The notes under the pieces are model-generated. The model was not told the DNA's origin and made no database searches. It worked only from the letters and a program-made list of their open reading frames with translations. A DNA stretch of 64,000 bases from Bifidobacterium breve (GTDB lineage: Bacteria; Bacteroidota; Bacteroidia; Flavobacteriales; Flavobacteriaceae), in contig CALPIE020000001.1 in the NCBI GenBank assembly GCA_943323545.2, positions 4,347 through 68,346 on the forward strand, in the 5' to 3' direction. Of this stretch, positions 19,377 through 37,104 are shown piece by piece. Numbering within the stretch: the stretch's first letter is position 1; each line of letters begins with the position of its first letter. Position numbers and translations under genes: made by a program.

Positions 19377-20057
19377 TTACTGCGTCATTGCCATACAAAC
19401 AATACTTACTTTCGCATCCGGAATTTTAAGCAAAGCCCTCGAACAAACCTCCAATGTAGCACCTGTGGTAATAATATCATCAATCAATAAGAAATGCTTG
19501 CCAATCATGGCTTCATCATAAACCACATCAAAAACAGCGGTATTTAATTCCGATCGTTTCAACAACGATTTTTTGGTTTGCGTTTTAGAATACACTTTTC
19601 GAACCAAAACACTGTCGTTATATGGAATATCCAAACTTTTCGACAACGATTTTCCAAAAGTTGTAACTTGATTGTAACCGCGTTGGTTTAACTTTTTAGG
19701 ATGCAAAGGAACCGGAATAATGCAATCAATTTGTTTTATTTGCGCAACGTTTTTTAATTCTTCCGCATACCATAATCCAATCATTTCGCCAATTTCTTCA
19801 TGTCCTTTGTATTTCAATTTGTGAATCATCTCTTGAACGATTCCCTTTTTCTGAAAATGAAATAAAGCCGCACCAAATTCAATAGGAATTCTTCCGTAAA
19901 ATTTTGAAATCGCTTCGTTTTTTGGATTGTTATGAAAATTGGTAAGTGGAATCTCGTGGCGACAAACGGTACAAAGTACCATTTCATCAGTTAGTAAAAA
20001 GGAATTACAACCACAGCAAACTCTAGGGAAAAACAAATTAATTAGGCTTTGAAACAT
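19377..20057 (-). CDS. comF: ComF family protein (double Zn-ribbon + PRTase fold)
   Basis: CxxC...CxxC, RGYNQ, LLIDDIITTGAT. Confidence 0.9.
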   Translation of the reverse strand: MFQSLINLFFPRVCCGCNSFLLTDEMVLCTVCRHEIPLTNFHNNPKNEAISKFYGRIPIEFGAALFHFQKKGIVQEMIHKLKYKGHEEIGEMIGLWYAEELKNVAQIKQIDCIIPVPLHPKKLNQRGYNQVTTFGKSLSKSLDIPYNDSVLVRKVYSKTQTKKSLLKRSELNTAVFDVVYDEAMIGKHFLLIDDIITTGATLEVCSRALLKIPDAKVSIVCMAMTQ

Positions 20058-20143
20058 GATAGATGGCTTAGATAACGATAAAATTAAATAAAAAAACAAT
20101 TCATTTCAATATTTAGTTTCACTTTTTATATTTTTGCACCATT

Positions 20144-21688
20144 ATGGCAAAACAAGAAGATTTATTTAAGAATGTAGTTTCGCATGCAAAAGAATACGGA
20201 TTTATTTTTCCGTCAAGCGAAATATACGACGGACTAAGTGCAGTATACGATTACGCACAAAACGGAGTTGAATTAAAGAAAAACATCCGCGAATACTGGT
20301 GGAAAGCGATGGTTCAAATGCACGAAAACATTGTCGGCCTCGACGCCGCGATTTTGATGCATCCAACAACATGGAAAGCTTCTGGTCACGTTGATGCCTT
20401 TAACGATCCATTAATTGATAACAAAGATTCGAAAAAAAGATACCGCGCCGACGTTTTAATTGAGGATTACGCCGAAAAATTAAACCTGAAAGCCAAAAAA
20501 GAAATTGAAAAAGCACGCGAGCGTTTCGGCGCTTCATTTGACGAAGAGCAATACAAAACGACCAATCCACGGGTAATGGAATACCTATCGAAAGAAAGAG
20601 AAATCCTTGAAAGAATGGGACGTTCACTAGGTGCTGGCGATTTGGAAGAAATAAAAGCGTTAATCGAAGAATTGGAAATTGCCGATCCGGAAACGGGTTC
20701 AAGAAACTGGACAGAAGTGCGTCAGTTTAACTTGATGTTCGGAACCAAATTAGGGGCTTCCGCTGATACCGCAATGGATTTATACCTTCGTCCGGAAACG
20801 GCACAGGGAATTTTCGTCAATTTCTTAAACGTACAAAAATCGGGGAGAATGAAAATTCCATTTGGAATTGCACAAACTGGTAAAGCGTTTCGAAATGAAA
20901 TCGTTGCACGACAATTCATTTTCCGTATGCGCGAATTCGAACAAATGGAAATGCAATTCTTTGTAAAACCCGGCGAAGAAATGAAATGGTACGAATACTG
21001 GAAAGATACACGATTAAAATGGCATTTATCACTCGGATTAGGAAAAGAGAACTACCGTTTTCACGATCATGAAAAATTAGCACATTACGCGAATGCTGCC
21101 GCAGATATCGAATTCAATTTCCCTTTCGGATTCAAGGAATTAGAAGGAATTCATTCAAGAACCGACTTCGATTTGAAAGCACACGAACAATACTCTGGTA
21201 AAAAAATGCAGTATTTTGATACAGATGAGAACAAAAATTACACACCGTATGTGGTAGAAACTTCGGTTGGTTTAGACAGAATGTTCTTAGCTGTTTTTGC
21301 AACTGCCTTGCAGGAAGAAACCTTAGAAGACGGTTCTACAAGAACTGTTCTTCGATTGCCATCTGTGTTAGCACCTACAAAAGCAGCGGTTTTACCATTA
21401 GTAAAAAAAGATGGTTTGCCAGACGTAGCTCAAAAAATCATCGACGATTTGAAATGGGACTTCACAGTAGCTTACGATGAAAAAGATGCAGTTGGTCGCC
21501 GTTACAGACGTCAGGATGCTTTAGGAACGCCATTCTGTATTACAGTAGATCATCAGACATTAGAAGATCAAACCGTAACGATTCGCCATCGTGATTCAAT
21601 GAAACAAGACCGCGTTAAAATTGCTGATTTAAAAGGAATTATTAATGATGAGGTTTCAATGAGGAATTGGTTATTGCGAACTAAATAG
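20144..21688 (+). CDS. glyQS: Glycine--tRNA ligase (alpha2 type)
   Basis: LRPETAQGIF, FRNEI..RQFIFRMREFEQME, anticodon-binding C-terminus. Confidence 0.96.
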   Translation: MAKQEDLFKNVVSHAKEYGFIFPSSEIYDGLSAVYDYAQNGVELKKNIREYWWKAMVQMHENIVGLDAAILMHPTTWKASGHVDAFNDPLIDNKDSKKRYRADVLIEDYAEKLNLKAKKEIEKARERFGASFDEEQYKTTNPRVMEYLSKEREILERMGRSLGAGDLEEIKALIEELEIADPETGSRNWTEVRQFNLMFGTKLGASADTAMDLYLRPETAQGIFVNFLNVQKSGRMKIPFGIAQTGKAFRNEIVARQFIFRMREFEQMEMQFFVKPGEEMKWYEYWKDTRLKWHLSLGLGKENYRFHDHEKLAHYANAAADIEFNFPFGFKELEGIHSRTDFDLKAHEQYSGKKMQYFDTDENKNYTPYVVETSVGLDRMFLAVFATALQEETLEDGSTRTVLRLPSVLAPTKAAVLPLVKKDGLPDVAQKIIDDLKWDFTVAYDEKDAVGRRYRRQDALGTPFCITVDHQTLEDQTVTIRHRDSMKQDRVKIADLKGIINDEVSMRNWLLRTK

Positions 21689-21702
21689 ATTGCAATTCAA
21701 AT

Positions 21703-21759
21703 AAAAAAAAGCCGCAGATTCACTGATTATATTTTAAATCAGCGAATCTGCGGCTTTTT
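21703..21759. terminator. Long bidirectional hairpin between convergent glyQS and arsR-like genes
   Basis: AAAAAGCCGCAGATT..CTGATT / AATCAG..AATCTGCGGCTTTTT. Confidence 0.8.
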
Positions 21760-21772
21760 ATCCCAACTCTAA

Positions 21773-22090
21773 CTAATCTTGAGCCTTAAACTGAATTTCT
21801 GTCAACAAAAAACCTTTTACTTTTTCCCACGTTTTTTCGTTTATCGAATAAGAAATGTTATTTCCGATGTCTTTTCCTTTAATTAATTTCACGCGTTTTA
21901 ATTCAGATAAGTGTTTTGAAACGGTAGATTGTGCCAAAGGCAAAACTTCTAAAAAATCGCCACAAACACATGATTTTGATTGCAACAATAGTTGTATAAT
22001 TTTCAGTCGAGCTGGATTTCCTAATGCTTTTAAAATATCGGCTGTTTCATTGATTTTAAAGGCAAAACCAAAAGTTTTTGTAATTCCCAT
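21773..22090 (-). CDS. ArsR/SmtB family transcriptional regulator
   Basis: KALGNPARLKI, SCVCGD, LAQSTVSKHL. Confidence 0.9.
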   Translation of the reverse strand: MGITKTFGFAFKINETADILKALGNPARLKIIQLLLQSKSCVCGDFLEVLPLAQSTVSKHLSELKRVKLIKGKDIGNNISYSINEKTWEKVKGFLLTEIQFKAQD

Positions 22091-22675
22091 ATCGCTATAA
22101 TATCATACTTTATTTAAATTAAAAAATTGGATTCATTCTTTGATTCCATATGCAATTAAGTAGCAGCTACTTTTTATCAATTACGTTTATCAAAAAATCA
22201 AATCGATACAAATCTACTAAAAGTTTGTAATAGTAAATAAAAGAAGTAAAAATTGCGCTGAATATAAAAGATAAACTAATTAAAATCAATTATATAGCTG
22301 AATAATATTTAGGTGCAATATCGCAATATAGTAATAACTAAAATGTAATGGCTATGTACAGTAAACAAATCAAATGGACTTTTTTATAAATTAGAAAAGT
22401 GAAAAAATAAAGGTAAAATCAAATAGTAATTGTTAATTACTTCTTCAGTTTTTTATCAAAAATTGTCTGAAAAGGTTAATTATAAAGGCATTTTCGAAAA
22501 AATGTGTGTCATTCATCGGCTTAATTCCCCATACATCTAATAGTTGAAAACTTGTAATTCAGAAAGAGGAATCATCAAATTTATTAAAGTATTTTAGACT
22601 CGGAATAACGATTTTTTAATTATTATTTCATTTAGTCCCCAAGACTATCGTATAATAAACTTAATTATCTGATGC

Positions 22676-23683
22676 TTGCCTCAATCAAACAGGGAAGTAT
22701 TGAATAAGATAACTTTTATTATCATTGATGACAATCAAAACAATGTTTTGAAAACAAAAGCAGTTGCTGAAAGTTTCCAAGGCCTTGAATTTGTTGCTTC
22801 TGCTGCCAACTATGATGATGGATTGGATTGTGTTTTAGAATACAAACCTGACATCGTTTTTTTAGGAATAAATCCAGAAAATAAATCGTCAGACATTTCA
22901 TTGCGATTAATTAATGAATTATATCGTTTTTTACCTCAAATTCCTAGAATAATTGTTACTGCTCTCAATGAGAATTTAGCTTACGAAGCCATAAAATACG
23001 GTGTTTTTGATTATTTAGTTCAGCCAATTCAACAGAAAGACATTCGCAAAACAATCGCCCGTTTAAACAGAGATTTAAATAGCGACACGTCTTTAACTTC
23101 CAATATTCTTTTCGAAGAAAAAGTAATTCAGCAAATCATCGATGCTCCGGAGGAAAATTATGCTGAAGAAGAAGAGATAGATATTCCACAAAACAAAACC
23201 GAAATCAGCGAAGATATTCCAGAAAAAATCGAAGATGAGGCAATTACAGTGGAAAATAAGTCAGAAAAAACGAATTTATCAGCAATCGAAGCCCATCATG
23301 AAGTTACATTTACTAACGGAAATTCCGCCACTAAACCACTTATTATTTGCGTAAAATCGTATGGCGATTATCGATATATCCATGCGACGGATATCTGTTA
23401 TCTCCAAGCCGATAACAATTCAACCGATATACATCTGAGTTCTGGCGAAATGATTACCGCTTTTAAAACGCTTAAACACTTTGAAGGCGTAATGAAATAT
23501 CCTTTTGTGCGAATCCACAATAGTTATATCGTCAACATCGATTTTGTATCACGTATTCACACTGGTAATGCGGTTTGTCATATAAAAGACACCACTACAA
23601 AACTCCCGTTTTCCAAATCCTACAAAGAAAACATTGACGCTATTATTGCTACTATTGCTTCCGGAAATTATTTAGAAATTTAG
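22676..23683 (+). CDS. LytTR-family regulator with atypical receiver domain and acidic linker
   Basis: N-terminal receiver (IIIDD; DIVFLGIN, Gly at the phospho-Asp position) and C-terminal LytTR (YLQADNN, FVRIHNSYIVN); start codon uncertain (TTG 22676 or 22700). Confidence 0.88.
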   Translation: MPQSNREVLNKITFIIIDDNQNNVLKTKAVAESFQGLEFVASAANYDDGLDCVLEYKPDIVFLGINPENKSSDISLRLINELYRFLPQIPRIIVTALNENLAYEAIKYGVFDYLVQPIQQKDIRKTIARLNRDLNSDTSLTSNILFEEKVIQQIIDAPEENYAEEEEIDIPQNKTEISEDIPEKIEDEAITVENKSEKTNLSAIEAHHEVTFTNGNSATKPLIICVKSYGDYRYIHATDICYLQADNNSTDIHLSSGEMITAFKTLKHFEGVMKYPFVRIHNSYIVNIDFVSRIHTGNAVCHIKDTTTKLPFSKSYKENIDAIIATIASGNYLEI

Positions 23684-23725
23684 TGCGTTTTTTGTTTTTG
23701 AAATAAATTTTCATAGTTTCACATT

Positions 23726-24397
23726 ATGGAAAACAAATCAGTAAACATTCTAATGGTTGATGATCATACGCCTATTATTGAAGGATACAAATCAATTTTG
23801 TCCTATAATAAGTCGGGGTTTTCCATAATCACAAAAGAAGCAAATGACTGTGAATCAGCATACAAAATAATAACAAATCCGAGTAATGCTATTCTTTTTG
23901 ATTTGGTTTTTATTGATGTTACGTTGCCGCCATTTATCGAAAAAAATATTCACTCCGGAGAAGATTTGGTTCCCTTTATAAAAGAAAATTTACCAAATGC
24001 AAAGATTGTTATTCTTACTTCACACACCGAATCGTTGGTTTTATTTCGCATTCTAGACAACTGTAAACCAGATGGTTTATTGGTGAAAAGTGATTTTTCA
24101 TCCGAAGAGTTTTTAGTTGTTTTTGATACTATTTTGAGCGGCGAAAAGTACTACAGTAAAACCGTTTTAAAACACAGTAAAGACGTTTTAGAAAATCGTA
24201 AATTTTTAGATCATTACAACATTCAAATCATCATTTTGCTTTCTCAAGGCATTAAAACAAAGAACCTTCACGAACATTTGCATCTTTCTGTAAGTGCTAT
24301 CGATAAAAGAAAAGCGGTAATAAAAATATTTTTCGGCATCGAAAAAGGAACCGATGAAGACATACTTCGCGAAGCCAGAAAACAAGGATTCATTTAA
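23726..24397 (+). CDS. Response regulator, receiver + LuxR/NarL-like HTH
   Basis: MVDDH, DLVFIDV, C-terminal LSQG..LHLSVSAIDKRK. Confidence 0.9.
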   Translation: MENKSVNILMVDDHTPIIEGYKSILSYNKSGFSIITKEANDCESAYKIITNPSNAILFDLVFIDVTLPPFIEKNIHSGEDLVPFIKENLPNAKIVILTSHTESLVLFRILDNCKPDGLLVKSDFSSEEFLVVFDTILSGEKYYSKTVLKHSKDVLENRKFLDHYNIQIIILLSQGIKTKNLHEHLHLSVSAIDKRKAVIKIFFGIEKGTDEDILREARKQGFI

Positions 24398-24423
24398 AAC
24401 ATTTTCTTATCAAGTATTTTTTT

Positions 24424-24570
24424 TGGCGTTCCCCGATAGATAAAAATAAGTTGATAAACGTAGTTTTTACAAATCGGGGCCGGGCTTTTCGCTACAATCT
24501 TTTTTGCTCCGCCAGTTCGCTTCGCTCGTGCCGTTCCTCAAAAAGGATTTCCACTGCAATCCCTAACGCA
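24424..24570 (+). repeat. Structured intergenic repeat family A, copy 2
   Basis: TGGCGTTCCCC...GGGCTTTTCGCTACAATCTTTT...AAAAGGATTTCCACTGCAATCCCTAACGCA. Confidence 0.8.
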
Positions 24571-24593
24571 AACCTGTTTTTAAATAAAAAATA

Positions 24594-24638
24594 TACAGAA
24601 AAACTGTAATTTTTATTTTATACACTTCTTTAATTTTA
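24594..24638 (+). promoter_or_regulatory. Palindromic operator TACAG-N5-CTGTA with downstream -7-like box, copy 1
   Basis: 24-bp identity with 25386-25409; TAATTTTA begins 37 bp after the palindrome start. Confidence 0.65.
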
Positions 24639-24717
24639 CTTCAATAACAAAATAAAATATATAATCCTGCCAATTTGTTTTCGACGACACAAACCAGGAT
24701 TGCAATAATTAAAAATT

Positions 24718-25380
24718 ATGAAAAACTTTTCATTTGGCGCTATAGTCATACTTCTTTTATTTGGTACAAATTCCCTTAGCCAAACCACAATAAAAGAACA
24801 ATTAAAGACCTTAGAACAAAGCGTCGCTGCCACAAAACCAAACACGTATGTCTTTAACGTTGAAAGACAAAAAAGTGTGAGTATCTATGATTCTATAGGA
24901 TTAAAAGCCTGTCAATGTTTAGATTCTTTAATCGCATTTGTTGCAACCCAAAAGCAAATGGCTGCTGCCACTTTCGATCTTAATGTAAAACCCTATCTAG
25001 AAAAAAAGCTACTCGAAAGGAATATGGAAACACTTGATTTCTCTGATGAAGAAGACCTTATATATGAAAGTTTTATAAACGTATTGAATTATAACAATGC
25101 TATACCTACTGTACAATTATATGAAGATTTCATTGTAAAAAATTACAAAAATCAGGTGCTAATGTCAAATATCTTAACGGTTCTATCCTATATCAAACAT
25201 ACTTGTTTTTATTTATCGAATGAAGTTAGTGATCCGACTTTTAAATATACTATCCATTGTTTTAGAGAAGATGTATTATCATATAACGTTTTCAATTGGA
25301 AGGTTTTTGCGATACATCCAGGTGCAATGTTAATTTGGTCGATAGCAGCTTGTGCCTGGGATGCTAAATTTGAAAAGTAA
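24718..25380 (+). CDS. Exported hypothetical protein with hydrophobic Cys/Trp-containing C-terminus
   Basis: Signal peptide; C-terminal C...NWKVFAIHPGAMLIWSIAACAWD. Confidence 0.7.
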   Translation: MKNFSFGAIVILLLFGTNSLSQTTIKEQLKTLEQSVAATKPNTYVFNVERQKSVSIYDSIGLKACQCLDSLIAFVATQKQMAAATFDLNVKPYLEKKLLERNMETLDFSDEEDLIYESFINVLNYNNAIPTVQLYEDFIVKNYKNQVLMSNILTVLSYIKHTCFYLSNEVSDPTFKYTIHCFREDVLSYNVFNWKVFAIHPGAMLIWSIAACAWDAKFEK

Positions 25381-25385
25381 AAATG

Positions 25386-25430
25386 TACAGAAAAACTGTA
25401 ATTTTTATTGTAACCGACTTTTTAAATTTA
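25386..25430 (+). promoter_or_regulatory. Palindromic operator TACAG-N5-CTGTA with downstream -7-like box, copy 2
   Basis: TACAGAAAAACTGTAATTTTTATT; TAAATTTA at the same 37-bp offset. Confidence 0.65.
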
Positions 25431-25544
25431 CCAAATCATAATAAAAAGTTTTTAAAATAGAAACATAGCCGAATACACGCCAAAATTTGAATTTCGATTT
25501 CATCTAGCGCTATGTTTCTATTTGTTATCTTAAAATACTTAAAA

Positions 25545-25814
25545 ATGAAAACAAGTAACAACAATAGAATTCAAATTTTAGAATTTTTGCCACTTATTTT
25601 AATAGTCATTTATAAAATGGCAATTCAAACCAATGCAAGTATAAATCATCAAGATAAAATGATTGTGATGTATGTTTTTATTGCCATTTCTACAGTAGTG
25701 TTTGGCTATTTATTAATGAGAGACAAAAACACAAATGCTAAAAGTATTGTAAGTATTGTTATACTAGTTTCCTTAATAATAGTTTCTTGTTTTCTTTTTT
25801 ACTATAAAAAATAA
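25545..25814 (+). CDS. Small 3-TM membrane protein
   Basis: Three hydrophobic segments and a basic C-terminus; ATG 25545 in AT-rich context (alternative start 25512). Confidence 0.65.
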   Translation: MKTSNNNRIQILEFLPLILIVIYKMAIQTNASINHQDKMIVMYVFIAISTVVFGYLLMRDKNTNAKSIVSIVILVSLIIVSCFLFYYKK

Positions 25815-25877
25815 AGTAGTTAAAATTATATATTTATAGCTGTAAAAAATTGTTGAAAGTGATAACATATAAACACA

Positions 25878-27911
25878 ATGATTAAAACTTCGAAATATTT
25901 CTTTTTGATTCTGACACTAATGTTTTTTAGTTGCAACAAAAAAGCCAACTCAAACTTAGATGAAGCCAACAACGATTCGATTGCTAAATATTTGAAATTG
26001 GCGGGGAATGATTCGTTGGCTTTTCCGCTTCGTGATAAATACAATCAGAAGGCATTTTCGTTGATTGATTTGGGAAGGAATGATACGGTGGTGAGATGGT
26101 ATTTATGTCAAGCGGCTATTAATTTTAGTATAACAAAAAATAAATCACAGTATTATAAAATAAGTAAACTACATTTTAATAAATCAAAGGAAGCAAAAGA
26201 TACTCTTAATTTAGCAAGGTATTATAGGTATCGAGGGGGTTATTTTAAAAATAATACCAAACAGTTTGATAGTATGTTTTATTATTATACTAAAGCTGAA
26301 AAATTTTATAAAAGAACAGTTGATTATGAAGGATTATCAAGAGTTTACTTATTTAAAGGACATGCTCAATTTAATATTGATGACTATTTAGGCGCTGAAC
26401 TTTCAACTAATCAAGCGTTTAATATTATAAAAAAAAGAAAAGAAGATAGATTTACATATAGCGTGTTAAATCAATTGGGTAACATTGCCCACAATTTAAG
26501 ACATTATAATCATGCTATTAAGTTTCATGAAGAATCATTAAAATTAGCGAAAAGATTAAACTTGTCTGCAAGATTATATAACATGGATTTTATTAAAACT
26601 AGTTTAAATAATATTGGAAATTCTTATAAGGAGCAAAAAAAATATAGAAAGGCAATATATTATTTTGAGAAAGCTCTTTCAGATAAGAAAGAAATTAATG
26701 AAGATATATTAACTTATGCTTATTTATTTACGAATATTGGTTATTCAAAAATGCAATTAAAAGAATATTCTCAATTACCAAATTTATTTGAAAAAGCTAT
26801 AAAAATTTATGATAGTTTAGATATTAAAAATGAGTGTTCTTTGAGTTATGTGTATTTATCTGATTATTATTTTAGAATAAAAGACACTTCAAAAGCCATT
26901 TCCTATTCTGAAAAAGCATTACAAATTGCTAAAGAGTCAAAAGCACCTTATTACTATTTAATTGCATTAAGTCATGCTGGTTTTGTAAATAAATCAAAAG
27001 CTTCAAAATATATCAAAGAATACCACGAAAAGAATGATAGCATTCAATTTGAACAACGAAAAGTTCGCAATCAATTCTATAAAATCCAACTTGAAACCGA
27101 TGAAATTACCCAAGAAAAAGAGGCCGCAATAAAACAAAAGTGGGTGCTTTCCTCAACAATAGCGGGAATTCTGCTTATCGTAATATTGCTATTTATAATT
27201 CACAGACAACGCGCCAAACAAAAGGAGCTACAATTATTGCAGCTACAGCAAAAAGGCAATGAAGAAATTTACCATCTTATGCTCAACCAACAAGCAAAAG
27301 TAGAGGAAGCGCGCCAAATAGAAAAAAAACGCATCGCTTTAGAACTCCACGACGGAATTATGAACAAATTAGCCAGTACCCGACTCAATTTGTTTGTACT
27401 GTCTAAGAAAAATGATCCAGAAACCATCAATAAATGCTTGACTTATATTGAAGACATTCATCATATCGAAAACGAAATACGTAATGTGTCACACGAGCTA
27501 AATCAGGAACTCTTTACCGAAAAAGACAGTTTTAAAACACTTTTAAAGCAGTTTGTTGCCGAACAAAACAGTCATTTGAAAACCAATTACGAACTTCAAA
27601 TAGATAAAAACATCAATTGGGAGTTGATTTCTAGCGAAATAAAAATGCATTTGTACCGCATTATTCAAGAAGCTATAAACAATAGTAACAAACATGCAAA
27701 AGCTACAAAAGTGATTATTTGTATTACTATGGATGAAAACCAACTTTGTATGTCGATAACAGACAACGGAATTGGTTTCGATTCCCAAAAAACAAAAGAA
27801 GGCATTGGGTTATTAAACATACAACAACGCATTCACTCTTTAAACGGAACGCTTTCTATCGAATCAAAAGTAAAAAAGGGTACAGTTATTTATTTAAAAA
27901 TCCCATTTTAA
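25878..27911 (+). CDS. TPR-repeat sensor histidine kinase (HisKA_3 + HATPase_c) 1
   Basis: Lipobox-like FFSC, TPR repeats (LNQLGNI, LNNIGNSY), one TM, ELHDG H-box, QEAINN..KHA, DNGIGF, GIGL. Confidence 0.92.
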   Translation: MIKTSKYFFLILTLMFFSCNKKANSNLDEANNDSIAKYLKLAGNDSLAFPLRDKYNQKAFSLIDLGRNDTVVRWYLCQAAINFSITKNKSQYYKISKLHFNKSKEAKDTLNLARYYRYRGGYFKNNTKQFDSMFYYYTKAEKFYKRTVDYEGLSRVYLFKGHAQFNIDDYLGAELSTNQAFNIIKKRKEDRFTYSVLNQLGNIAHNLRHYNHAIKFHEESLKLAKRLNLSARLYNMDFIKTSLNNIGNSYKEQKKYRKAIYYFEKALSDKKEINEDILTYAYLFTNIGYSKMQLKEYSQLPNLFEKAIKIYDSLDIKNECSLSYVYLSDYYFRIKDTSKAISYSEKALQIAKESKAPYYYLIALSHAGFVNKSKASKYIKEYHEKNDSIQFEQRKVRNQFYKIQLETDEITQEKEAAIKQKWVLSSTIAGILLIVILLFIIHRQRAKQKELQLLQLQQKGNEEIYHLMLNQQAKVEEARQIEKKRIALELHDGIMNKLASTRLNLFVLSKKNDPETINKCLTYIEDIHHIENEIRNVSHELNQELFTEKDSFKTLLKQFVAEQNSHLKTNYELQIDKNINWELISSEIKMHLYRIIQEAINNSNKHAKATKVIICITMDENQLCMSITDNGIGFDSQKTKEGIGLLNIQQRIHSLNGTLSIESKVKKGTVIYLKIPF

Positions 27912-28133
27912 TTCCTTAATCAAACTTTTATACTTAAAGGATTCATTGATTTTGTTCTATTGAGTCTGTAGGTTTCTACTACTTCTTCATTCACAACTCC
28001 AAGATTATCTACAACAATCATCGACCAACTACACTTTTATTAAATAATTTATTTTTAAAATGTTGATTTTCAATATTTTAAGTTTATGAATTTTCTTTTT
28101 ATACTCCGAAAAACCACTTGGTTTTATAAATTG

Positions 28134-28184
28134 TTCATTCACCCTAATTTGCTATTCATTCACTCACAAACGGCGTTCATCTAC
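28134..28184 (+). promoter_or_regulatory. Three 9-bp direct repeats at 21-bp period (putative LytTR binding sites)
   Basis: TTCATTCAC 28134, TTCATTCAC 28155, TTCATCTAC 28176; a further TTCATTCAC at 27986. Confidence 0.7.
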
Positions 28185-28227
28185 CATATACACTATAAAG
28201 TATATCAATAGAACTCCAATGCTATAG

Positions 28228-28235
28228 TAGATTTG
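28228..28235 (+). promoter_or_regulatory. -7 box of the peptide-gene promoter
   Basis: TAGATTTG matches TAnnTTTG; no TTTG at the expected -33 position. Confidence 0.6.
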
Positions 28236-28321
28236 TCGAGTAAAAGCCTCAAAGAGTTGATGGCAAATCAAATGGCTTTTCTAAAATTAAAGTATAACAA
28301 AAAATATAAAACTTAGAAATT

Positions 28322-28564
28322 ATGAAAAAATCGTTATTAATAATCGGATTGTTCTCTTTAATGATGGTGTTGACATCATTTACGTCTCCTAATGAGACTG
28401 GAGGGAATAAAACAATAGGTGAATTTACAACAGGTGGTAATAAAACAGTAGGTGAATTTACAACTGGAGGTAATAAAACAATAGGTGAATTTACAACTGG
28501 AGGTAATAAAACAATAGGTGAGTTTACATACGAAACAGGTGGAAATAAAACTATAGGAGAATAA
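28322..28564 (+). CDS. Small secreted multi-core peptide precursor (5x TGGNKT[I/V]GE)
   Basis: Sec-type signal peptide, synonymous variation among the 33-bp repeats, own promoter and terminator. Confidence 0.85.
   Translation: MKKSLLIIGLFSLMMVLTSFTSPNETGGNKTIGEFTTGGNKTVGEFTTGGNKTIGEFTTGGNKTIGEFTYETGGNKTIGE
28397..28561 (+). repeat. Coding 33-bp tandem repeat, 5 units
   Basis: AC(T/A)GG(A/T)GGnAATAAAAC(A/T)(A/G)TAGGnGA units; one 6-bp insertion before the last unit. Confidence 0.9.
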
Positions 28565-28588
28565 TAAATTTAATTTTTTATATAATTG

Positions 28589-28621
28589 AAAAGCTGTTGT
28601 ATTTACAACAGCTTTTTTTTT
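28589..28621 (+). terminator. Terminator after the peptide gene
   Basis: AAAAGCTGTTGTA-tt-TACAACAGCTTTT plus T run. Confidence 0.88.
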
Positions 28622-28658
28622 GTCAAAAAAACACTATTTTTGAAAAAAAATAAAATTT

Positions 28659-30704
28659 TTGAGAAAATATAATTTCATATTAATATTTTTTTTCTTATTC
28701 GGATGTAAAGAAAATAAGAAACAAATAAAAATATTAAATGTTACACATGATAGCATTTCATATTTTCTTGATAGGGCAAATAGAAATTTAGAAAAAGATA
28801 TCAATAAAAGTTATGTTTTTTATAAAAAAGCTTTAAAATATTCTGATGAAATTACAAATGATTCCCTTAGTAGAGATTGTCTTTTTAAAATAAATTATGG
28901 CTTTTATAAACTAAAAAAGTGGGAAGATTTTAAAGAATCCTCTAAAATCTTACTAGAATATTCAATAGAAAGTAAAGATACTTTCCATATTGCACAAGTA
29001 TACAGATATAAAGGTAATTATTATAAAAACACATCTTTAAATGATAGTGCTTTTTATTATTATATAAAAGCTGAAAAATTATTTGATAAAATCAATGATA
29101 AAATCAATTTAGCAAATATTTTAACTAATAAAAGTGTTGTTCAATACAATACTGGAAATTATAATAGTGCAGATAAAACATTAACCCAATCATATTTTTT
29201 ATTAAAAAATTCAGAAGATAAAAATAAATTTTTTGAATGTTTAATCATGATGGGTGTAATTTCAAATGAAACAAAAAATTATGAACAGGCAATTGAATAT
29301 TACAATAAAGCATTAACAATTGTTAGGGAAAATAAAATAAAAACATCAATATTTGAAGAAGCTACGACATTAAATAATTTAGGTTATAATTATCAAAAAA
29401 TTGAGAATTATAATGAAGCAATAAAAAATTATAATTTAGCTTTAAAAGATAAAGAATTGGAAAATTCTTTGCCAGATTTATATAGCCTTCTAATTGATAA
29501 TCTTGCATATTCTAAATTTAAAATTAGAGACTTTAACAACATTCCAGATTTATTTTATAAAGGCTTAAGAATTAGAGAAAAAATAAATTCACCAACATTA
29601 ATTATTTTAAGTAAAATACATTTATCGGAGTATTATTTTGATAAAAAAGATTTAATATTATCTAAAAAGTTTGCAAATGAAGCTTTAAGACTATCTAAAG
29701 AAACTAAAAACACAAGAGATGTTTTAGCATCTTTAAAACAGGCTTCTAATGTTGATGCTGTTAATTCTTCAAAATTATCTAAGGATTATATTCGAATTAG
29801 TGACAGTATTAATGAAGTTGAAAGAAAGTCACAAGAAAAATTTGCCCGTCTTGAACTCGAAACGGAAGAAATTAAAGAGGAAAATACTCAACTATCTCAA
29901 AAAAATAGGACAATTCTAAATTACTTTATTAGCGCAATAATAATTGGAGGATTTTTATTTTTTGCGAGAACACAGCGATCACGATCAAGAGAATTAACAC
30001 TCAAACAATCCCAACAACAAGCCAATGAAGAAATATACCGACTTATCATTTCCCACCAAAATCAGCTTGAAGAAGGTAGAGATTTAGAAAAAAAACGACT
30101 CTCAAAAGAATTACACGACGGGGTTCTTGGCCGTTTGTTTGGACTTCGTCTCAACCTAGACGGTTTAAACAATAGCGATGATGAAATTTCAAAGCAACAA
30201 CGATTGGATTATCTTAACGAGCTGCAACTTATAGAGCAAGATCTTCGCGATATTTCGCATGAGTTAAACAGAGAGAACTTGGTGTTAATAAATAACTTCG
30301 TTGCCATCATCAATAACTTATTAGAACAACAAGCTAAAATAAATCCTGCCAAAATAAAAGCGATTATAGCTGACGATATCGATTGGGAAATATTGCCCAA
30401 CACTGCTAAAATTAATTTGTACCGAATTCTACAAGAAGCGCTGCAAAATATTAATAAACACGCTGAAGCTAAGAATATTTTAATCCATTTTAGAAAAGAT
30501 AAAAAAGGGAATTTGCTCTTTAATATTGAAGACGATGGGAAAGGTTATGATTTGAATAGCAAAAAAAGCAAAGGAATCGGAATGAAAAATATAGTGTCGA
30601 GAACACAACAATGTAATGGAATTATAGATATTAAATCGGAAATAGGAAAAGGTTCAAAAATTATTATTACTTTTCCACTCGAAAATAAAACCATAAAAGT
30701 TTAA
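28659..30704 (+). CDS. TPR-repeat sensor histidine kinase (HisKA_3 + HATPase_c) 2
   Basis: TTG start, lipobox-like LFGC, TPR repeats, TM, ELHDG H-box, QEALQNINKHA, DDGKG, GIGM. Confidence 0.92.
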   Translation: MRKYNFILIFFFLFGCKENKKQIKILNVTHDSISYFLDRANRNLEKDINKSYVFYKKALKYSDEITNDSLSRDCLFKINYGFYKLKKWEDFKESSKILLEYSIESKDTFHIAQVYRYKGNYYKNTSLNDSAFYYYIKAEKLFDKINDKINLANILTNKSVVQYNTGNYNSADKTLTQSYFLLKNSEDKNKFFECLIMMGVISNETKNYEQAIEYYNKALTIVRENKIKTSIFEEATTLNNLGYNYQKIENYNEAIKNYNLALKDKELENSLPDLYSLLIDNLAYSKFKIRDFNNIPDLFYKGLRIREKINSPTLIILSKIHLSEYYFDKKDLILSKKFANEALRLSKETKNTRDVLASLKQASNVDAVNSSKLSKDYIRISDSINEVERKSQEKFARLELETEEIKEENTQLSQKNRTILNYFISAIIIGGFLFFARTQRSRSRELTLKQSQQQANEEIYRLIISHQNQLEEGRDLEKKRLSKELHDGVLGRLFGLRLNLDGLNNSDDEISKQQRLDYLNELQLIEQDLRDISHELNRENLVLINNFVAIINNLLEQQAKINPAKIKAIIADDIDWEILPNTAKINLYRILQEALQNINKHAEAKNILIHFRKDKKGNLLFNIEDDGKGYDLNSKKSKGIGMKNIVSRTQQCNGIIDIKSEIGKGSKIIITFPLENKTIKV

Positions 30705-30709
30705 CAACA

Positions 30710-31387
30710 ATGCCCCACCAAAATATTAAAGTCTTAATCGTAGATGATCATCCTTTTATCATTCAAGGATATGAAAATGTGATTAATAGATTTCCTAATA
30801 AAAAAATAGAATTCACTATTTCAAAAGCAGTCGATTGCAAATCGGGTTACGAAATCATAATGAATGACAACGGAGAAACTTTCGATATTGCTTTTTTAGA
30901 CGTCAGTATGCCTGTTTATTTAGAAAAAGACATTCATACCGGAGAAGATTTAGCCAAATTACTTAACAAAGAAATGCCCGATTGTAAGATTGTTCTGCTA
31001 ACAATGCACTCGGAAAGTTTGAAAGTCCAAAAAATAATAGATGAAATTAATCCACTTGGCTTAGTCATCAAAAACGATTTGACTTTTGATAATATGTTGT
31101 TGGCCATCGAAACGGTTATAAAAGGTGAAAAATATTACAGTGATGCAGTAATTAAATTTTTAAACCAACAACAAAAAGAAAAAATCTACGTCGATGTCAT
31201 CGACAGACAAATTCTTCACTTTTTAAATAAAGGAATTCCAGCAGGAGATGTGGCTTTGTACATTCCAATTTCATCCAGTTCGGTAAAAACCAGAATTGAA
31301 AATATGAAAGAACTTATAGGAAAAACCGAATATACCGATAAAGAATTAGTTGCTGAAGCTAAAGAAAACGGAATGATGTTAAAATAG
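30710..31387 (+). CDS. Response regulator, receiver + LuxR/NarL-like HTH (paralog of 23726)
   Basis: IVDDHP, DIAFLDVSMP; shares IH(S/T)GEDL with the paralog. Confidence 0.9.
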   Translation: MPHQNIKVLIVDDHPFIIQGYENVINRFPNKKIEFTISKAVDCKSGYEIIMNDNGETFDIAFLDVSMPVYLEKDIHTGEDLAKLLNKEMPDCKIVLLTMHSESLKVQKIIDEINPLGLVIKNDLTFDNMLLAIETVIKGEKYYSDAVIKFLNQQQKEKIYVDVIDRQILHFLNKGIPAGDVALYIPISSSSVKTRIENMKELIGKTEYTDKELVAEAKENGMMLK

Positions 31388-31444
31388 GATCGAACGTCAA
31401 AAAACAGTCTGGCAGACTGTTTTAGTGAAGGGGCCAGACGGCGC
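31387..31444 (+). repeat. Hairpin repeat family C, copy 2
   Basis: AAAACAGTC-tggca-GACTGTTTT stem plus AGTGAAGGGGCCAGACGGCGC; homologous to 17438-17495. Confidence 0.7.
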
Positions 31445-31452
31445 AAGGGCAC

Positions 31453-31478
31453 AATCCTCTTAATGGAGAGGATTTTTT
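31453..31478. terminator. Hairpin terminator between convergent genes
   Basis: AATCCTCT...AGAGGATT followed by T run. Confidence 0.6.
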
Positions 31479-31479
31479 C

Positions 31480-32526
31480 TTATTCTTCCAAAGCATCCCA
31501 GCCTCTAGCTTTCAAAGGAATTTTAGTATTCGCTCTCGTAATTAAATGACAACCTTCACTTTCCTGAACCATATGACCAATTACCGTAAAATTCGGATTG
31601 GCTTTTATCTTATCAAAATCTTCTAAAGCAATTGTAAACAATAATTCATAATCTTCACCACCGTTTATCGCGACAGTAGTTCCGTCAATATTGAATTCCT
31701 CACAAACATTTATAAACTGAGGATCAACTGGAATTTTCTCTTCAAATAGATTACAACCCACCTTACTTTGCTTGCAAATATGAATAATTTCAGAAGACAA
31801 TCCATCAGAAATATCTATCATTGAAGTTGGTTTTACTTCTAGTTTTTCTAATAAAAGTCTAATATCATGACGCGCTTCTGGTTTTAATTGGCGCTCAATT
31901 AAATAAGTGTATGCATCCAAATCAGGTTGGTTATTTGGGTTCACTTGAAACACTTGTTTCTCTCTTTCTAATACCTGTAATCCCATGTATGCCGAACCTA
32001 AATCACCAGTTACCACCAATAAATCGTTTTCTTTAGCTCCATTTCTGTATACAATTTCATCTTCATTTGCTTCACCAATCGCTGTGATTGAAATTATTAA
32101 CCCTTTTTGGGATGAAGTTGTGTCGCCACCAATTACATCTACATTATAAAATTTAGCAGCGTGTGCAATTCCGTCAAATAATTCTTCTAAAGCTTCCAAC
32201 GGAAATCGATTTGAAACCGCCACCGAAACTGTAATTTGTGAAGGCTTGGCATTCATTGCACAAATATCAGATACATTTACAACCACTGCTTTGTAACCCA
32301 AGTGGCGCAAAGGCATATACGACAAATCAAAATGAACGCCTTCGATTAATAAATCGGTAGAAACGAGTACTTTTTTAGCTGCAAAATCCAAAACAGCAGC
32401 ATCATCGCCTATACTTTTTAAAGTGGAAGCTTGTTTTACATCAAATCTTTTTGTCAAATGGTCAATCAAACCAAATTCACCCAATTGTGAAAGTGAAGTA
32501 CGTTGCGGATTTTTATCTTCTATCAT
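31480..32526 (-). CDS. thiL: Thiamine-monophosphate kinase
   Basis: GEFGLI, IGDDAAV, EGVHF, NVSDICAM, DISDGL, GGEDYELLFT. Confidence 0.96.
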   Translation of the reverse strand: MIEDKNPQRTSLSQLGEFGLIDHLTKRFDVKQASTLKSIGDDAAVLDFAAKKVLVSTDLLIEGVHFDLSYMPLRHLGYKAVVVNVSDICAMNAKPSQITVSVAVSNRFPLEALEELFDGIAHAAKFYNVDVIGGDTTSSQKGLIISITAIGEANEDEIVYRNGAKENDLLVVTGDLGSAYMGLQVLEREKQVFQVNPNNQPDLDAYTYLIERQLKPEARHDIRLLLEKLEVKPTSMIDISDGLSSEIIHICKQSKVGCNLFEEKIPVDPQFINVCEEFNIDGTTVAINGGEDYELLFTIALEDFDKIKANPNFTVIGHMVQESEGCHLITRANTKIPLKARGWDALEE

Positions 32527-32626
32527 GTCGCAAAGGTACGAAGGTTTTTTGTTTGCTACAAAGTCGCTATGACGCTTAGTTTTTTTATCTTTATTAATTC
32601 AATCTAAATTTTTTAAAAATGCATTT

Positions 32627-33556
32627 ATGAAAAATCACCAAATTATAACATTAACTATAAATCCATCTTTGGATAAGAGCACGCATTTCAAAGGATTAAT
32701 TCCCGAACAAAAAATGCGATGTGAAGTACCACGATATGATGCGGGTGGTGGTGGAATTAATGTGTCTAAGGCCATTTCTAAATTGGGAGGGAGTTCTATT
32801 TGTGTGTTTACTTCTGGAGGTTCTTCAGGCGAAAAGTTAACAACTTTAATTGGGGAAGAAGGATTAGAATACATCACTATAAAAACTAAAAACTGGACAA
32901 GAGAAAATTTTATAGCTTTTGATACATCAACCAAATCACAGTACAGATTCGGATTTCCAGGCAACGAATTATCAATTGATGAACAAGATAAAATTAAAGC
33001 AACTATAAAAGAACTAAAATCAGAGTATTTAATTTTAAGCGGGAGTTTGAACAATGGATTAGCATCTAATTTCTATCAAGAAATAGCTGAAATTGCAAAA
33101 GCATCAGGAACAAAAGTAATAGTTGACACTTCTGGAGAAGCATTGCGGAAAGTTTTAGAAACAGGGGTCTATTTAATTAAACCAAATATTGGAGAACTAG
33201 CAAAATTAATTGGTGTAGAGCGACTGGAATTGCCCGAAGTAGAAAAAGCCGCAAAAAAATTAATTGAAAACGGAAGCGCCGAAATTATAGTCGTATCACT
33301 CGGAGCCGATGGTGCAATTTTAGTTGCCAAAGACGAAACTCATTTTGTAAAAGCACCTAAAGTTGAAAAGAAAAGTACAGTTGGTGCGGGCGATAGCATG
33401 GTAGGTGGAATGGTTTGGGCTTTATCACAAAATAAAACACTAAAAGAAGTTTTACAATTTGGTGTTTGCTGCGGAACTGCTGCCACAATGAACGAAGGAA
33501 CGCAACTTTTTAAGGTCGAAGATGTCCAAAAACTATTTAAAGAAATGCAAAAATAA
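32627..33556 (+). CDS. 1-phosphofructokinase/PfkB family hexose kinase
   Basis: T.NPSLD, GGGGINVS, IKPN..EL, STVGAGDS. Confidence 0.92.
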   Translation: MKNHQIITLTINPSLDKSTHFKGLIPEQKMRCEVPRYDAGGGGINVSKAISKLGGSSICVFTSGGSSGEKLTTLIGEEGLEYITIKTKNWTRENFIAFDTSTKSQYRFGFPGNELSIDEQDKIKATIKELKSEYLILSGSLNNGLASNFYQEIAEIAKASGTKVIVDTSGEALRKVLETGVYLIKPNIGELAKLIGVERLELPEVEKAAKKLIENGSAEIIVVSLGADGAILVAKDETHFVKAPKVEKKSTVGAGDSMVGGMVWALSQNKTLKEVLQFGVCCGTAATMNEGTQLFKVEDVQKLFKEMQK

Positions 33557-33578
33557 ACCCAACAACGTAAGTCATCGG

Positions 33579-33613
33579 GTTTTTCTTTGTTCTTTTTTCT
33601 TTGTTCTTTTTTC
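33579..33613 (-). repeat. Heptamer tandem array after the lepA stop
   Basis: TTTGTTC/TTTTTTC alternating, next to hairpin 33555-33582. Confidence 0.6.
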
Positions 33614-33618
33614 TCATA

Positions 33619-35415
33619 CTAATCATTCAACTTCAATACCGCCATAAAAGCTTCTTGCGGAATCTCAACATTTCCTACCAAACGCATTCGCTTTTTCCCT
33701 TTTTTCTGTTTTTCAAGAAGTTTTCTTTTTCGAGAAATATCACCGCCATAACATTTAGCAGTAACATCTTTACGTAACGCTTTTATCGTTTCACGTGCAA
33801 TGATTTTTGCGCCAATAGCAGCTTGAATCGGAATATCAAATTGTTGTCTCGGAATTAATTCACGTAATTTCTCACACATTTTTTTACCTATATTATAGGC
33901 ATTACTTTCGTGAATCAGAGCAGAAAGTGCATCTACAGATTGTCCATTCAATAATACATCCAGTTTCACTAATTTCGAAGCTCTCATTCCAATTGGAGAA
34001 TAATCAAACGACGCATATCCTTTAGAAACCGTTTTCAATCGGTCGTAAAAATCGAATACAATTTCTGCCAAAGGCATGTCGAAATTCAATTCGACTCTTT
34101 CGGTAGTTAAATACGTTTGATTCGTAATAACACCCCGCTTTTCAATACACAAACTCATTACATTTCCAACATAATCAGATTTGGTAATGATGGTTGCTTT
34201 GATGAAAGGTTCTTCCACTCGGTCTAATCGTGAGGGTTCAGGTAAGTCGGAAGGATTGTTTACCACAATACCAACTTCAGGCTCTTTTTTAGTATAAGCC
34301 AAGTAAGAAACGTTAGGAACCGTAGTAATAACAGTCATGTCATACTCACGTTCTAATCGTTCTTGTATAATTTCCAAATGCAGCATTCCTAAGAATCCAC
34401 ATCGGAAACCAAATCCCAATGCTGCCGAACTTTCTGGTAAAAATACCAACGAAGCATCGTTCAATTGGAGTTTTTCCATCGACGAACGCAAATCTTCATA
34501 ATCATCAGTGTCAACAGGATAAATTCCGGCAAAAACCATAGGTTTAACATCCTCAAATCCCTTAATCATATTGGTAGTTGGCGTTTTCGCATCGGTAATC
34601 GTATCTCCAACTTTAACTTCTTTCGCTTCTTTAATTCCGGAAATTAAATAACCAACATCACCAGTAGATATAACATCTTTTGGCACTTGGTTCAACTTCA
34701 ATGTTCCTACTTCGTCAGCAAAATATTCATTGCCGGTTGCCATGAATTTGATTTTTTGCCCTTTTCTGATTTCGCCATTTTTTACTCTAAAAATAACTTC
34801 AATTCCACGAAACGGATTGTAATGTGAATCGAAAATTAAAGCTTGTAATGGTTCGTCTTTAACCCCTTTTGGTGGTGGAATTTTTTCAATAATCGCAGCC
34901 AATATATTTTCAACACCAAAACCAGTTTTTCCAGAAGCGTGAATAATATCTTCCAATTTGCATCCCAATAAATCGATAATATCATCGCTCACTTCTTCAG
35001 GATTGGCACTTGGCAAATCGACTTTATTCAACACCGGAATAATTTCCAAATCATTTTCCAAAGCCAAATACAAATTAGAAATCGTTTGTGCTTGTATACT
35101 TTGCGCTGCATCAACAATCAAAAGCGCTCCTTCACACGCGGCAATCGAACGTGAAACTTCATAACTAAAATCAACGTGTCCCGGCGTATCAATAAGGTTT
35201 AAAATATAATCTTCCCCTTTGTAATTGTACTCCATTTGAATAGCGTGACTTTTTATGGTAATACCACGTTCCCGCTCTAAGTCCATGTTGTCAAGCAATT
35301 GTGCTTTTTCTTCACGAGCGGTTACGGTTTGTGTGGTGCCAAGAAGTCGGTCGGCAAGTGTACTTTTTCCGTGGTCAATGTGTGCAATAATGCAAAAATT
35401 TCTAATATGCTTCAT
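33619..35415 (-). CDS. lepA: Elongation factor 4
   Basis: [40 protein letters not shown]. Confidence 0.98.
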
Positions 35416-35437
35416 TTTCTTTTTCTGACAATTTTAT

Positions 35438-35551
35438 TGGCGTTCCCCTGCGGGTTGGGCTTTTCGCTATATCTTTTGTTTGCTTACGCCTGTTCGCTAT
35501 CGCTCGAGTCGTTACTCTTCACAAAAGGATACCGCTGCAATCCCTAACGCA
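35438..35551 (+). repeat. Structured intergenic repeat family A, copy 3 (in the lepA leader)
   Basis: TGGCGTTCCCC..GGGCTTTTCGCTATATCTTTT...AAAAGGATACCGCTGCAATCCCTAACGCA. Confidence 0.8.
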
Positions 35552-35809
35552 ATCTACCTAATAATAAGGAATTAATCGGCAAATATACGCTAAAGTTACA
35601 AGTTCAAAAGAGATACACCTAAAATAATTAGGTGCTTTTCAATTAAAAATAAAATACGCTATTTATCGTATTTCAATAATTGTTAAACGTCCTTAGTTTA
35701 GCGCTTCATTCGTATAATCAAAAAAAAAGACAAAAGTAAAAAATCAACTTACTTGTGAGTGTAAGAAAAAAAAGTAAATTTGTTCAAACAAACCTTAAAA
35801 TTTTTAACA

Positions 35810-36418
35810 ATGAAAAAAGTAGTAGTAGCATTAGTCTTTTTTGCATCGTCAATGATGATAGCACAAAAAATGGAAGTTGAAAAAGGCGATTTTGCTTTTT
35901 TAAATGGTCAAACAACTGTTAATGTTGAATTTGATTACAGTAAATTAACGTTAATGAAAGAAAACAAAACCGAAGCACAATACATTTCTGAAAGAGCCGC
36001 TGATTTAAACGAAAAAAACAAAGGAGTTGGCGATGTTTGGAAGAAAAAATGGGAAGGTGCGAAAACAGCCATTTGGAATCCAAAATTTTTAGAGTTGGTA
36101 AATATTGTTTTAGCAAAAAAAGATAAAAACCTAAGTTTTCAAGAAGATTTGACTTCTGCAAAATACACTTTGATTGTTCAGGCTACATGGATTTTCCCAG
36201 GTTGGGATGCCATGGTGATGAAACAACCAGCAAAAGTTTCAACTACTTTGAAGTTCGTTGAAACAGCAAACAGATCAAATGTCGTTTTAGAGATATCAAC
36301 TAAAGAAGCTCCTGGTGACCAATGGGGAAATAACTTCAGTAACGAATCAAGAATTGGTGAAGGTTTCGCCAAAACAGGAAAATCACTAGCAGGTTATATT
36401 ATAAAAAACACAAAATAA
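35810..36418 (+). CDS. Exported hypothetical protein (paralog of 36499)
   Basis: Signal peptide; TAAATTTG box at 35775; shared motif AKYT..V..TWI.PG...PAK.S. Confidence 0.8.
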   Translation: MKKVVVALVFFASSMMIAQKMEVEKGDFAFLNGQTTVNVEFDYSKLTLMKENKTEAQYISERAADLNEKNKGVGDVWKKKWEGAKTAIWNPKFLELVNIVLAKKDKNLSFQEDLTSAKYTLIVQATWIFPGWDAMVMKQPAKVSTTLKFVETANRSNVVLEISTKEAPGDQWGNNFSNESRIGEGFAKTGKSLAGYIIKNTK

Positions 36419-36437
36419 CATTTGCCTAAATATAATT

Positions 36438-36466
36438 AAAAACCTTAGTCTAACTAAGGTTTTTTT
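36438..36466 (+). terminator. Terminator
   Basis: AACCTTAG-tctaa-CTAAGGTT plus T run. Confidence 0.8.
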
Positions 36467-36498
36467 GTTTTCTAATTTAAAAAAAATACATTTGTTTC

Positions 36499-37104
36499 AT
36501 GAAAAAACAGTTATTTTTTATGACATTATTTTTTATGTCGTCACTACTTTATAGCCAACGGTTTGATATTTTATCAGGAGATTTAAAAAATGTAAAGGGA
36601 ATTACCGAATACCATTGTACTTTCGATTATAAAGACATGCAAGTCAACGGATTTGAATCGGAGGCCGCGTTTCTCAAAGAAAAAATAGCCAAAAGGCAAA
36701 AGTATGATGATGGTAAAGATTTAAAAGGTAAAGCCGTTCAATTTGAAAAAGATTGGTTTGAAGATCGTTTTAATAAATACGAACCTGCTTATATCAATTA
36801 TTTCAACGCACGCCTTGAAAAAGAAAAGGTAAAAGCGGTTATAAATCCAGCAGCCAAATATACCATGAATGTGAAAACAACGTGGATTTATCCCGGTTAT
36901 GAATTGGCACAAGTAGAACCCGCAAAAATAAGTGCTATTATCACTATTTTTGAAACTGCCAATCCTTCCAATGTGCTATTGGCTATCGAATTCGACAAAT
37001 CAATAGGAATTGTGAAAGATTACCGAAAACAAGGCGATCGAATAGTTGGAGCTTATGAAAAATTAGCCAAAAACATTACGTTACAAATGAAACGATTTCT
37101 ATAA
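36499..37104 (+). CDS. Exported hypothetical protein (paralog of 35810)
   Basis: Signal peptide; shared motifs with the upstream gene. Confidence 0.8.
   Translation: MKKQLFFMTLFFMSSLLYSQRFDILSGDLKNVKGITEYHCTFDYKDMQVNGFESEAAFLKEKIAKRQKYDDGKDLKGKAVQFEKDWFEDRFNKYEPAYINYFNARLEKEKVKAVINPAAKYTMNVKTTWIYPGYELAQVEPAKISAIITIFETANPSNVLLAIEFDKSIGIVKDYRKQGDRIVGAYEKLAKNITLQMKRFL

Follow-up and report, generated by a model that had tools for sequence, protein, structure and literature searches.

The window, i.e., the whole stretch of 64,000 nucleotides that was analysed, is placed in Flavobacterium by its named relatives and contains a small propeptide gene between two TPR kinase genes. The gene order is LytTR regulator (22676), NarL-type regulator, two small ORFs, HK1 (25878–27911), propeptide, HK2 (28659–30704) and RR2 (30710); the gap between propeptide and HK2 is 94 bp. 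Features of the locus (positions of the window):

22676–23683, + strand: LytTR-family regulator whose receiver is atypical in having no phospho-acceptor Asp; candidate for binding to the triple repeat
28135–28185, + strand: three direct repeats of 9 bp at 21-bp intervals (TCATTCACC at 28135, TCATTCACT at 28156, TCATCTACC at 28177); predicted regulator site
28228–28235, + strand: Bacteroidetes −7-like promoter box, TAGATTTG
28322–28564, + strand: gene of the 80-aa propeptide; a leader resembling a signal peptide (about aa 1–21), then five cores
28397–28423, + strand: core 1, TGGNKTIGE
28430–28456, + strand: core 2, TGGNKTVGE
28463–28489, + strand: core 3, TGGNKTIGE
28496–28522, + strand: core 4, TGGNKTIGE, with FTYE, the longer spacer, after it
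28535–28561, + strand: core 5, TGGNKTIGE, stop codon directly after it
28400–29990 (approximate), + strand: hypervariable specificity cassette, spanning the cores, the terminator and the sensor domain; identity falls past the leader and recovers at kinase residue ~440
28588–28617, + strand: intrinsic terminator (13-pair stem), 3' of the propeptide gene and 5' of HK2
28659–30704, + strand: sensor histidine kinase HK2, 681 aa (TPR_12, HisKA_3, HATPase_c)
30710–31387, + strand: NarL-type response regulator RR2, phospho-acceptor Asp intact

Propeptide gene: Translation of 28322–28564 gave the 80-aa product of the original prediction, a leader that on inspection has a basic N-region and a hydrophobic core, and five 9-aa cores TGGNKT(I/V)GE with the spacers FT, FT, FT and FTYE, in this order; the last unit ends at GE, as had been stated, core 5 running up to the stop codon. 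The 11-aa repeat unit that had been proposed holds for units 1–3 (spacer FT) and fails for unit 4, which has two extra residues. Tandem Repeats Finder indicated a 33-bp period at 28397–28528 (4.0 copies, 91% matches, score 229). The DNA copies of the five cores differ mainly at third codon positions, again as foreseen: 6 of 7 variable columns; pS 0.46, pN 0.02. No match of the propeptide to Pfam or NCBIfam and no paralogue in genome G000 was found. Two other database entries of the gene (P0050 and its cluster member) have four cores, not five, and contigs mapped to the window break within the array; the copy number is therefore in doubt, and the difference may be due to strain variation or to assembly collapse.

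Promoter and terminator: The gene had been credited with its own promoter box and with a strong terminator, and both were recovered. The box TAGATTTG at 28228 agrees with the Bacteroidetes −7 consensus TAnnTTTG; the stem at 28588–28617 was observed once vs 0.2 in shuffles (13 pairs, −17.4 kcal/mol, z −5.9). In the family described below, a hairpin with U-tract lies 3' of the precursor in 98 of 121 orthologues, the triple-repeat motif beat the best shuffled control in 120 of 121 promoters (the matrix was derived from these same promoters), and a −7-like box stands 39–40 bp downstream of the motif in 115 of 121. LytTR sites have a 9+12 geometry (PMC6193735, PMC5600425), and the triple repeat is predicted to be a regulator site of this type. 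Across G000 the motif gave one strong site, the propeptide promoter, and no other target was found; exact two-box matches in five other genomes were at control level, save for the orthologous promoter and simple repeats. The LytTR gene ends <450 nt before the precursor in 90 of 121 loci; here, a variable insert lies between the two. The phospho-acceptor position of the LytTR protein is Gly here and Glu in L037, L043 and L044, so that this protein is not likely to close a plain AgrA-type loop. It also has a long acidic linker, and its receiver is read as a pseudo-receiver.

Kinase HK2 and its neighbourhood: HK2 consists of a lipobox Cys16, a TPR superhelix (about aa 16–415), one TM helix (about 418–436) and the kinase part; Cys16 was found in 121 of 121 orthologues, with intact H-box and N-box. 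The lipobox Cys together with the single TM helix places the TPR domain, by prediction, in the periplasm. The sensor was modelled (AlphaFold) as a TPR superhelix with pLDDT 92; N157, N196, N240, N281 and H321 stand on successive A helices with a conservation of 57, 80, 100, 98 and 94%, respectively. In RRNPP receptors a conserved Asn grips the peptide backbone (PMC6458997), and RapF was among the weak PDB matches to the sensor profile (E 3e-8); the match to NCBIfam NF053520 (FimS) was also weak (E 7e-11, 41 bits vs cut-off 600). RR2, directly 3' of HK2 in 120 of 121 loci, is probably its cognate regulator, judging from this arrangement. Among the ORFs of 20000–37000 no modifying enzyme, peptidase or ABC exporter was found, in keeping with the earlier remark that no modifying enzyme is adjacent; the eight proteins of 22676–31387 were checked against family libraries, the other ORFs being recognised from sequence.

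Family across genomes: An HK2 orthologue (E ≤ 1e-125) was found in at least 163 of the 301 Flavobacterium genomes sampled. The loci examined were those returned by the searches and 80 of 108 further listed places; 9 duplicates were removed, and of the 133 loci with ≥440 bits 7 had no upstream DNA, leaving 126. A precursor of the MKK...LTSF type stands upstream of the HK2 orthologue in 121 of these 126 (median gap 103 bp). The five loci without a scored precursor are L115, where it is present and was missed by the script's sort; L007, with a divergent two-copy secreted peptide in the slot; L101 and L111, with a regulator upstream of the kinase in an HK1-like arrangement; and L165, in which no precursor was seen. 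In a draw across the phylum (E ≤ 1e-35), all 10 genomes of the family had the kinase, as did 3 of the 140 others; no exact match of the leader DNA to metagenome contigs was obtained, and no kinase relative in viral contigs was confirmed.

Precursors contain 1–7 cores (single in 19 of 121, multi-copy in 102, one gene with an N-run), and 99 distinct core strings were counted among 101 multi-copy genes. Homologs with another core or copy number, which the original prediction had proposed to seek, keep the same leader, and their core and copy number change in frame; frame-breaking repeat variation, named in advance as contrary evidence, was not seen in them. The stop codon falls exactly at the last residue of the shared core in 60 of 101 multi-copy genes. 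With the irregular spacers, these observations support the proposed polyprotein of short signals. Over whole units with spacers, anchored on identical core starts (77 genes), pN was 0.031 vs pS 0.30; this figure is preferred to the family-wide core value (0.009/0.34), which is biased, identity having served to define the cores. The precursor genes of L094, L102, L103 and L179 each combine at least two dissimilar cores and are candidate cases of specificity shifts in progress.

A profile search gave 661 proteins; among the 120 matches listed, all were hypothetical, unnamed or mislabelled, one of them with an incidental Pfam entry. The public labels of P0035, P0090, P0110 and P0008 ("3-oxoacyl-ACP reductase" or "general stress protein YciG") are wrong. 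Pfam and NCBIfam searches over 74 precursors gave scattered matches, no consistent family and at most 2 members per family; ESM Atlas returned unnamed or mislabelled Bacteroidota clusters (score 0.89–0.91), of low recognition value.

Where the homologous kinase is more distant, the precursor slot is taken by a small ORF for a lipoprotein or a signal-peptide protein in 36 of 52 loci, vs 46 of 536 large genes of G000 as control; ~15 or more of these 36 are lipoprotein-like. Short Gly-Gly- or Pro-rich tails were seen on small lipoproteins or secreted proteins immediately before distant TPR kinases (L018–L030, L054–L081, L196–L202), and these proteins are likely to be other ligand classes. Two Lacinutrix loci, L072 (4751–5872) and L078 (4846–5893), have five tandem single-core precursor genes ahead of a TPR kinase; the amplification there is that of a whole gene, not intragenic.

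Core ends and spacers: Cores end in D/E in 51 of 78 genes, and a hydrophobic residue follows the internal core end in 63 of 78 vs 19% background; K or R is present in 100 of 100 units. Spacers have 0–4 residues, length 2 being the commonest (51 of 131), and their length varies within single genes. The end pattern fits release by general proteases, the exact ends being predicted ones. Dipeptide trimming of the alpha-factor/Ste13 kind was considered and is not supported (within-gene spacer differences: 9 even vs 8 odd). The motif D-S/T-hydrophobic, which directs O-glycosylation, occurs in 0 of 100 units.

Co-variation of core and sensor: The core and the TPR sensor of HK2 vary as one block, and promoter, leader and kinase domain are conserved. 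For 100 multi-copy loci rho was 0.41 (core–sensor) and 0.29 (core–kinase), kin not being independent; the partial rho was 0.32 for core–sensor given kinase (0 of 499 permutations, a count overstated since kin are not independent) and 0.09 for core–kinase given sensor. In pairs with a kinase distance <0.1 the sensor distance was 0.16 where the cores were similar (17 pairs) and 0.57 where dissimilar (24 pairs). Promoter and leader correlate with the kinase domain 1.6 kb away (rho 0.74) more closely than with the cores that they touch (rho 0.33); since they track the kinase and not the adjacent core, the variable block has a boundary at each end. In the three closest genomes (L031–L033) identity was 95–97% for the HK2 kinase and 92–95% for RR2; 35–54% for the first and 47–67% for the second half of the HK2 sensor; the peptide-less HK1 keeps 69–74% in its sensor (HK1 kinase 80–86%). 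DNA identity to the three closest genomes was 80–91% in promoter and start, 35–57% in the cores and 83–95% from ~30000. In the metagenome locus L205 identity steps from 37–62% to 98–100% at residue 440 (sensor residues 201–380: 37–48%). One contig of river run X10 matches 29999–31400 with 23 differences; its ~490 further, unaligned letters hint weakly at a different sensor allele. Of the 45 well-supported splits in the sensor tree, 20 disagree with the kinase tree; in the 70 tests where the nearest neighbours differ, the core is nearer to the sensor neighbour 46 times and to the kinase neighbour 21 times, with 3 ties. The sensor columns that change most with the core, 233, 236, 239, 274, 277 and 314, lie at −1, −4 and −7 from the N/H ladder N196/N240/N281/H321 (exploratory; pairs not independent).

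Interpretation: HK2 is probably the receptor of the propeptide-derived cores, and in some form the peptide of this gene is very probably the HK2 ligand. In the explanation that we consider likely, the exported propeptide would be cut into short cores, which the adjacent kinase would bind, giving a diffusible, strain-specific cell-to-cell signal; strain specificity is suggested by the peptide changing together with the sensing part of the neighbouring kinase across species. The ligand and signal reading draws on linkage, selection on the cores, core diversity, co-variation, the bounded block, the HK1 control, tree conflict, the TPR fold and the core ends. The decisive context, absent from the original prediction, was the TPR kinase next door that co-varies with the core, with the conserved triple promoter repeat.

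The sequence of events may be pictured as follows: the propeptide would be exported by Sec and cut near LTSF by signal peptidase I; housekeeping proteases would free the cores, mostly after Asp/Glu and before a hydrophobic residue; the ~1-kDa peptide would cross the outer membrane; a core would bind along the Asn ladder in the TPR groove of HK2, which would pass phosphate to the NarL-type RR2; and the LytTR protein would control the propeptide promoter. Multiple copies may provide more signal per transcript, and one copy could drift as the others retain the old specificity. Against the signal reading stand the 21 of 70 nearest-neighbour tests that side with the kinase, the 19 of 121 single-core precursors, the lack of a linked dedicated protease or exporter among the ORFs of 20000–37000, the LytTR receiver without its phospho-acceptor Asp, the failure to find a second target of the repeat motif in G000, and the lipoprotein-like distant precursors, which would be tethered, not diffusible. 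A single shared recombination tract would, moreover, correlate core with sensor even without contact, a point against the ligand reading.

Some of these points suit a cell-autonomous periplasmic ligand, an intact multivalent chain or retained fragments that would tune the cell's own kinase and report export, proteolysis or envelope leakiness, not neighbours. The receptor domain is predicted to be periplasmic and lipid-anchored, many distant slot-holders are small lipoproteins and no exporter is linked; however, a private signal gives little reason for 99 cores in 101 genes, the swapping of alleles between near-identical kinase backgrounds is poorly explained, and spacer length varies within genes, as expected of discarded spacers. 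We consider this explanation rather unlikely. Were the gene product a low-complexity secreted or structural repeat protein, its drift could hitchhike with a sensor whose diversification has a different cause, since tandem arrays grow and become uniform without selection and adjacent DNA has a common recombination history; this is very unlikely in view of a between-copy pN far below pS, irregular spacers that exclude a fixed-period fold, an adjacent leader that tracks the kinase and not the core, the much less divergent sensor of HK1, which has no peptide gene, and the two Lacinutrix loci, where a whole single-core gene is multiplied five times. A RiPP or bacteriocin precursor with several cores, its modifying enzymes encoded at another place and its product sensed by the kinase, would have the same multi-core anatomy, with GG in 88 and S/T in 96 of 100 units, and some relatives have variable ORFs for secreted and small membrane proteins close by; such a precursor is highly improbable, the leader being a hydrophobic Sec-type signal and not a RiPP leader, Cys occurring in 2 of 100 units, 20000–37000 holding no modifying enzyme or transporter, and the 74 members belonging to no consistent Pfam or NCBIfam family.

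Comparison with known systems: In Staphylococcus agr the hypervariable region covers the peptide together with the 5' portion of the kinase and is not linked to the regulator (PMC3673130, PMC8768832); the latter is of LytTR type and binds 9-bp repeats 12 bp apart (PMC5600425, PMC6193735). The present locus shares the small propeptide gene beside a membrane histidine kinase and the hypervariable cassette of peptide and sensor. A LytTR gene is linked here too and 9-bp repeats stand in the promoter, the LytTR protein being a candidate binder with an atypical receiver that has no phospho-acceptor Asp. The locus differs from agr in the Gram-negative host, the Sec-type leader and several linear cores; it has neither AgrB nor, with so few Cys residues, a thiolactone Cys; a periplasmic TPR sensor on a HisKA_3 kinase stands in place of polytopic AgrC, the linked phospho-acceptor regulator is NarL-type, and ~100 core types occur in the genus sample.

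RRNPP systems are defined by a propeptide of 10–100 aa with secretion signal next to a TPR receptor (PMC10075063). The 80-aa propeptide with its signal-like leader (by inspection), the adjacent gene and the TPR receptor correspond to this, whereas the RRNPP receptor is an intracellular protein of 250–500 aa in Firmicutes and HK2 a 681-aa membrane kinase with Flavobacterium relatives. With Rap-Phr, NprR-NprX, PlcR-PapR and AimR-AimP the system shares an unmodified linear peptide and an Asn-anchored groove, both predicted here; in contrast, the TPR domain is extracytoplasmic, re-import is not needed, and the phylum is Bacteroidota. Intragenic and whole-gene peptide duplication is described for phr and nprX (PMC5199041); multi-copy precursors, an occasional state there, are the norm here (102 of 121).

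The nearest studied kinase type is Porphyromonas gingivalis FimS of FimS-FimR, a Bacteroidota histidine kinase with periplasmic TPR sensor; by its bit score (41 vs 600) HK2 is not an orthologue. PMC11053733 gives the signal of FimS as unknown and mentions a polypeptide as its suggested ligand. Multi-core RiPP precursors have linked modifying, leader-recognition or export machinery, which was not found at the present locus.

The yeast alpha-factor precursor has a signal peptide and repeated cores with short spacers, as has the propeptide here; there is no homology, no dibasic Kex2 sites are present, and dipeptide trimming is not supported. Phr has been likened to fungal pheromone precursors (PMC5199041). 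The best reading by analogy would be an agr-like specificity cassette combined with RRNPP-like TPR recognition in a Gram-negative, with full membership of neither. PMC13220807 presents peptide quorum sensing as a paradigm of Gram-positive bacteria, and its text contains neither "Bacteroid-" nor "Flavobacter-"; no description of a multi-core propeptide/TPR kinase system was found in the literature searched (open-licence PMC and bioRxiv).

We incline to the view that flavobacteria have a genus-wide pheromone system of undescribed build (multi-core propeptide, lipid-anchored periplasmic TPR kinase, cassette-swapped peptide and sensor, at least 100 dialects) and that the small secreted or lipoprotein genes before Flavobacteriaceae TPR kinases would be the missing ligands of this receptor class. 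A candidate ligand, a core of 9–18 residues, can be read from the genome with its cognate sensor for each species, and receptor–ligand specificity is testable with synthetic peptides in culturable strains, e.g., F. aquatile (L043), which has a core of the EIGGRSQVP type. The precursors are at present unannotated or mislabelled (hypothetical, "3-oxoacyl-ACP reductase", "YciG"), and the set is a large natural experiment in signal–receptor co-evolution by repeat duplication and cassette exchange.

Insert 23726–27911: The insert carries genes for a NarL-type regulator and for the second TPR kinase, HK1, which is not preceded by a small peptide gene, along with a 220-aa ORF of secreted type and a small membrane ORF. 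It is different or missing in relatives, and two tandem HK1 copies were seen in L033, L038 and L047. Other genes stand at or near its position in L045 (263–1525), L041 (40–1977) and L052 (304–5295). The variants give, as impressions from the sequence, a bacteriocin/immunity-like pair (216-aa secreted protein with Cys/Gly/Ala-rich hydrophobic tail, and small membrane ORF), an ORF that may be a lytic enzyme or toxin-like, next to secreted proteins, and an array of paralogous 190-aa secreted proteins.
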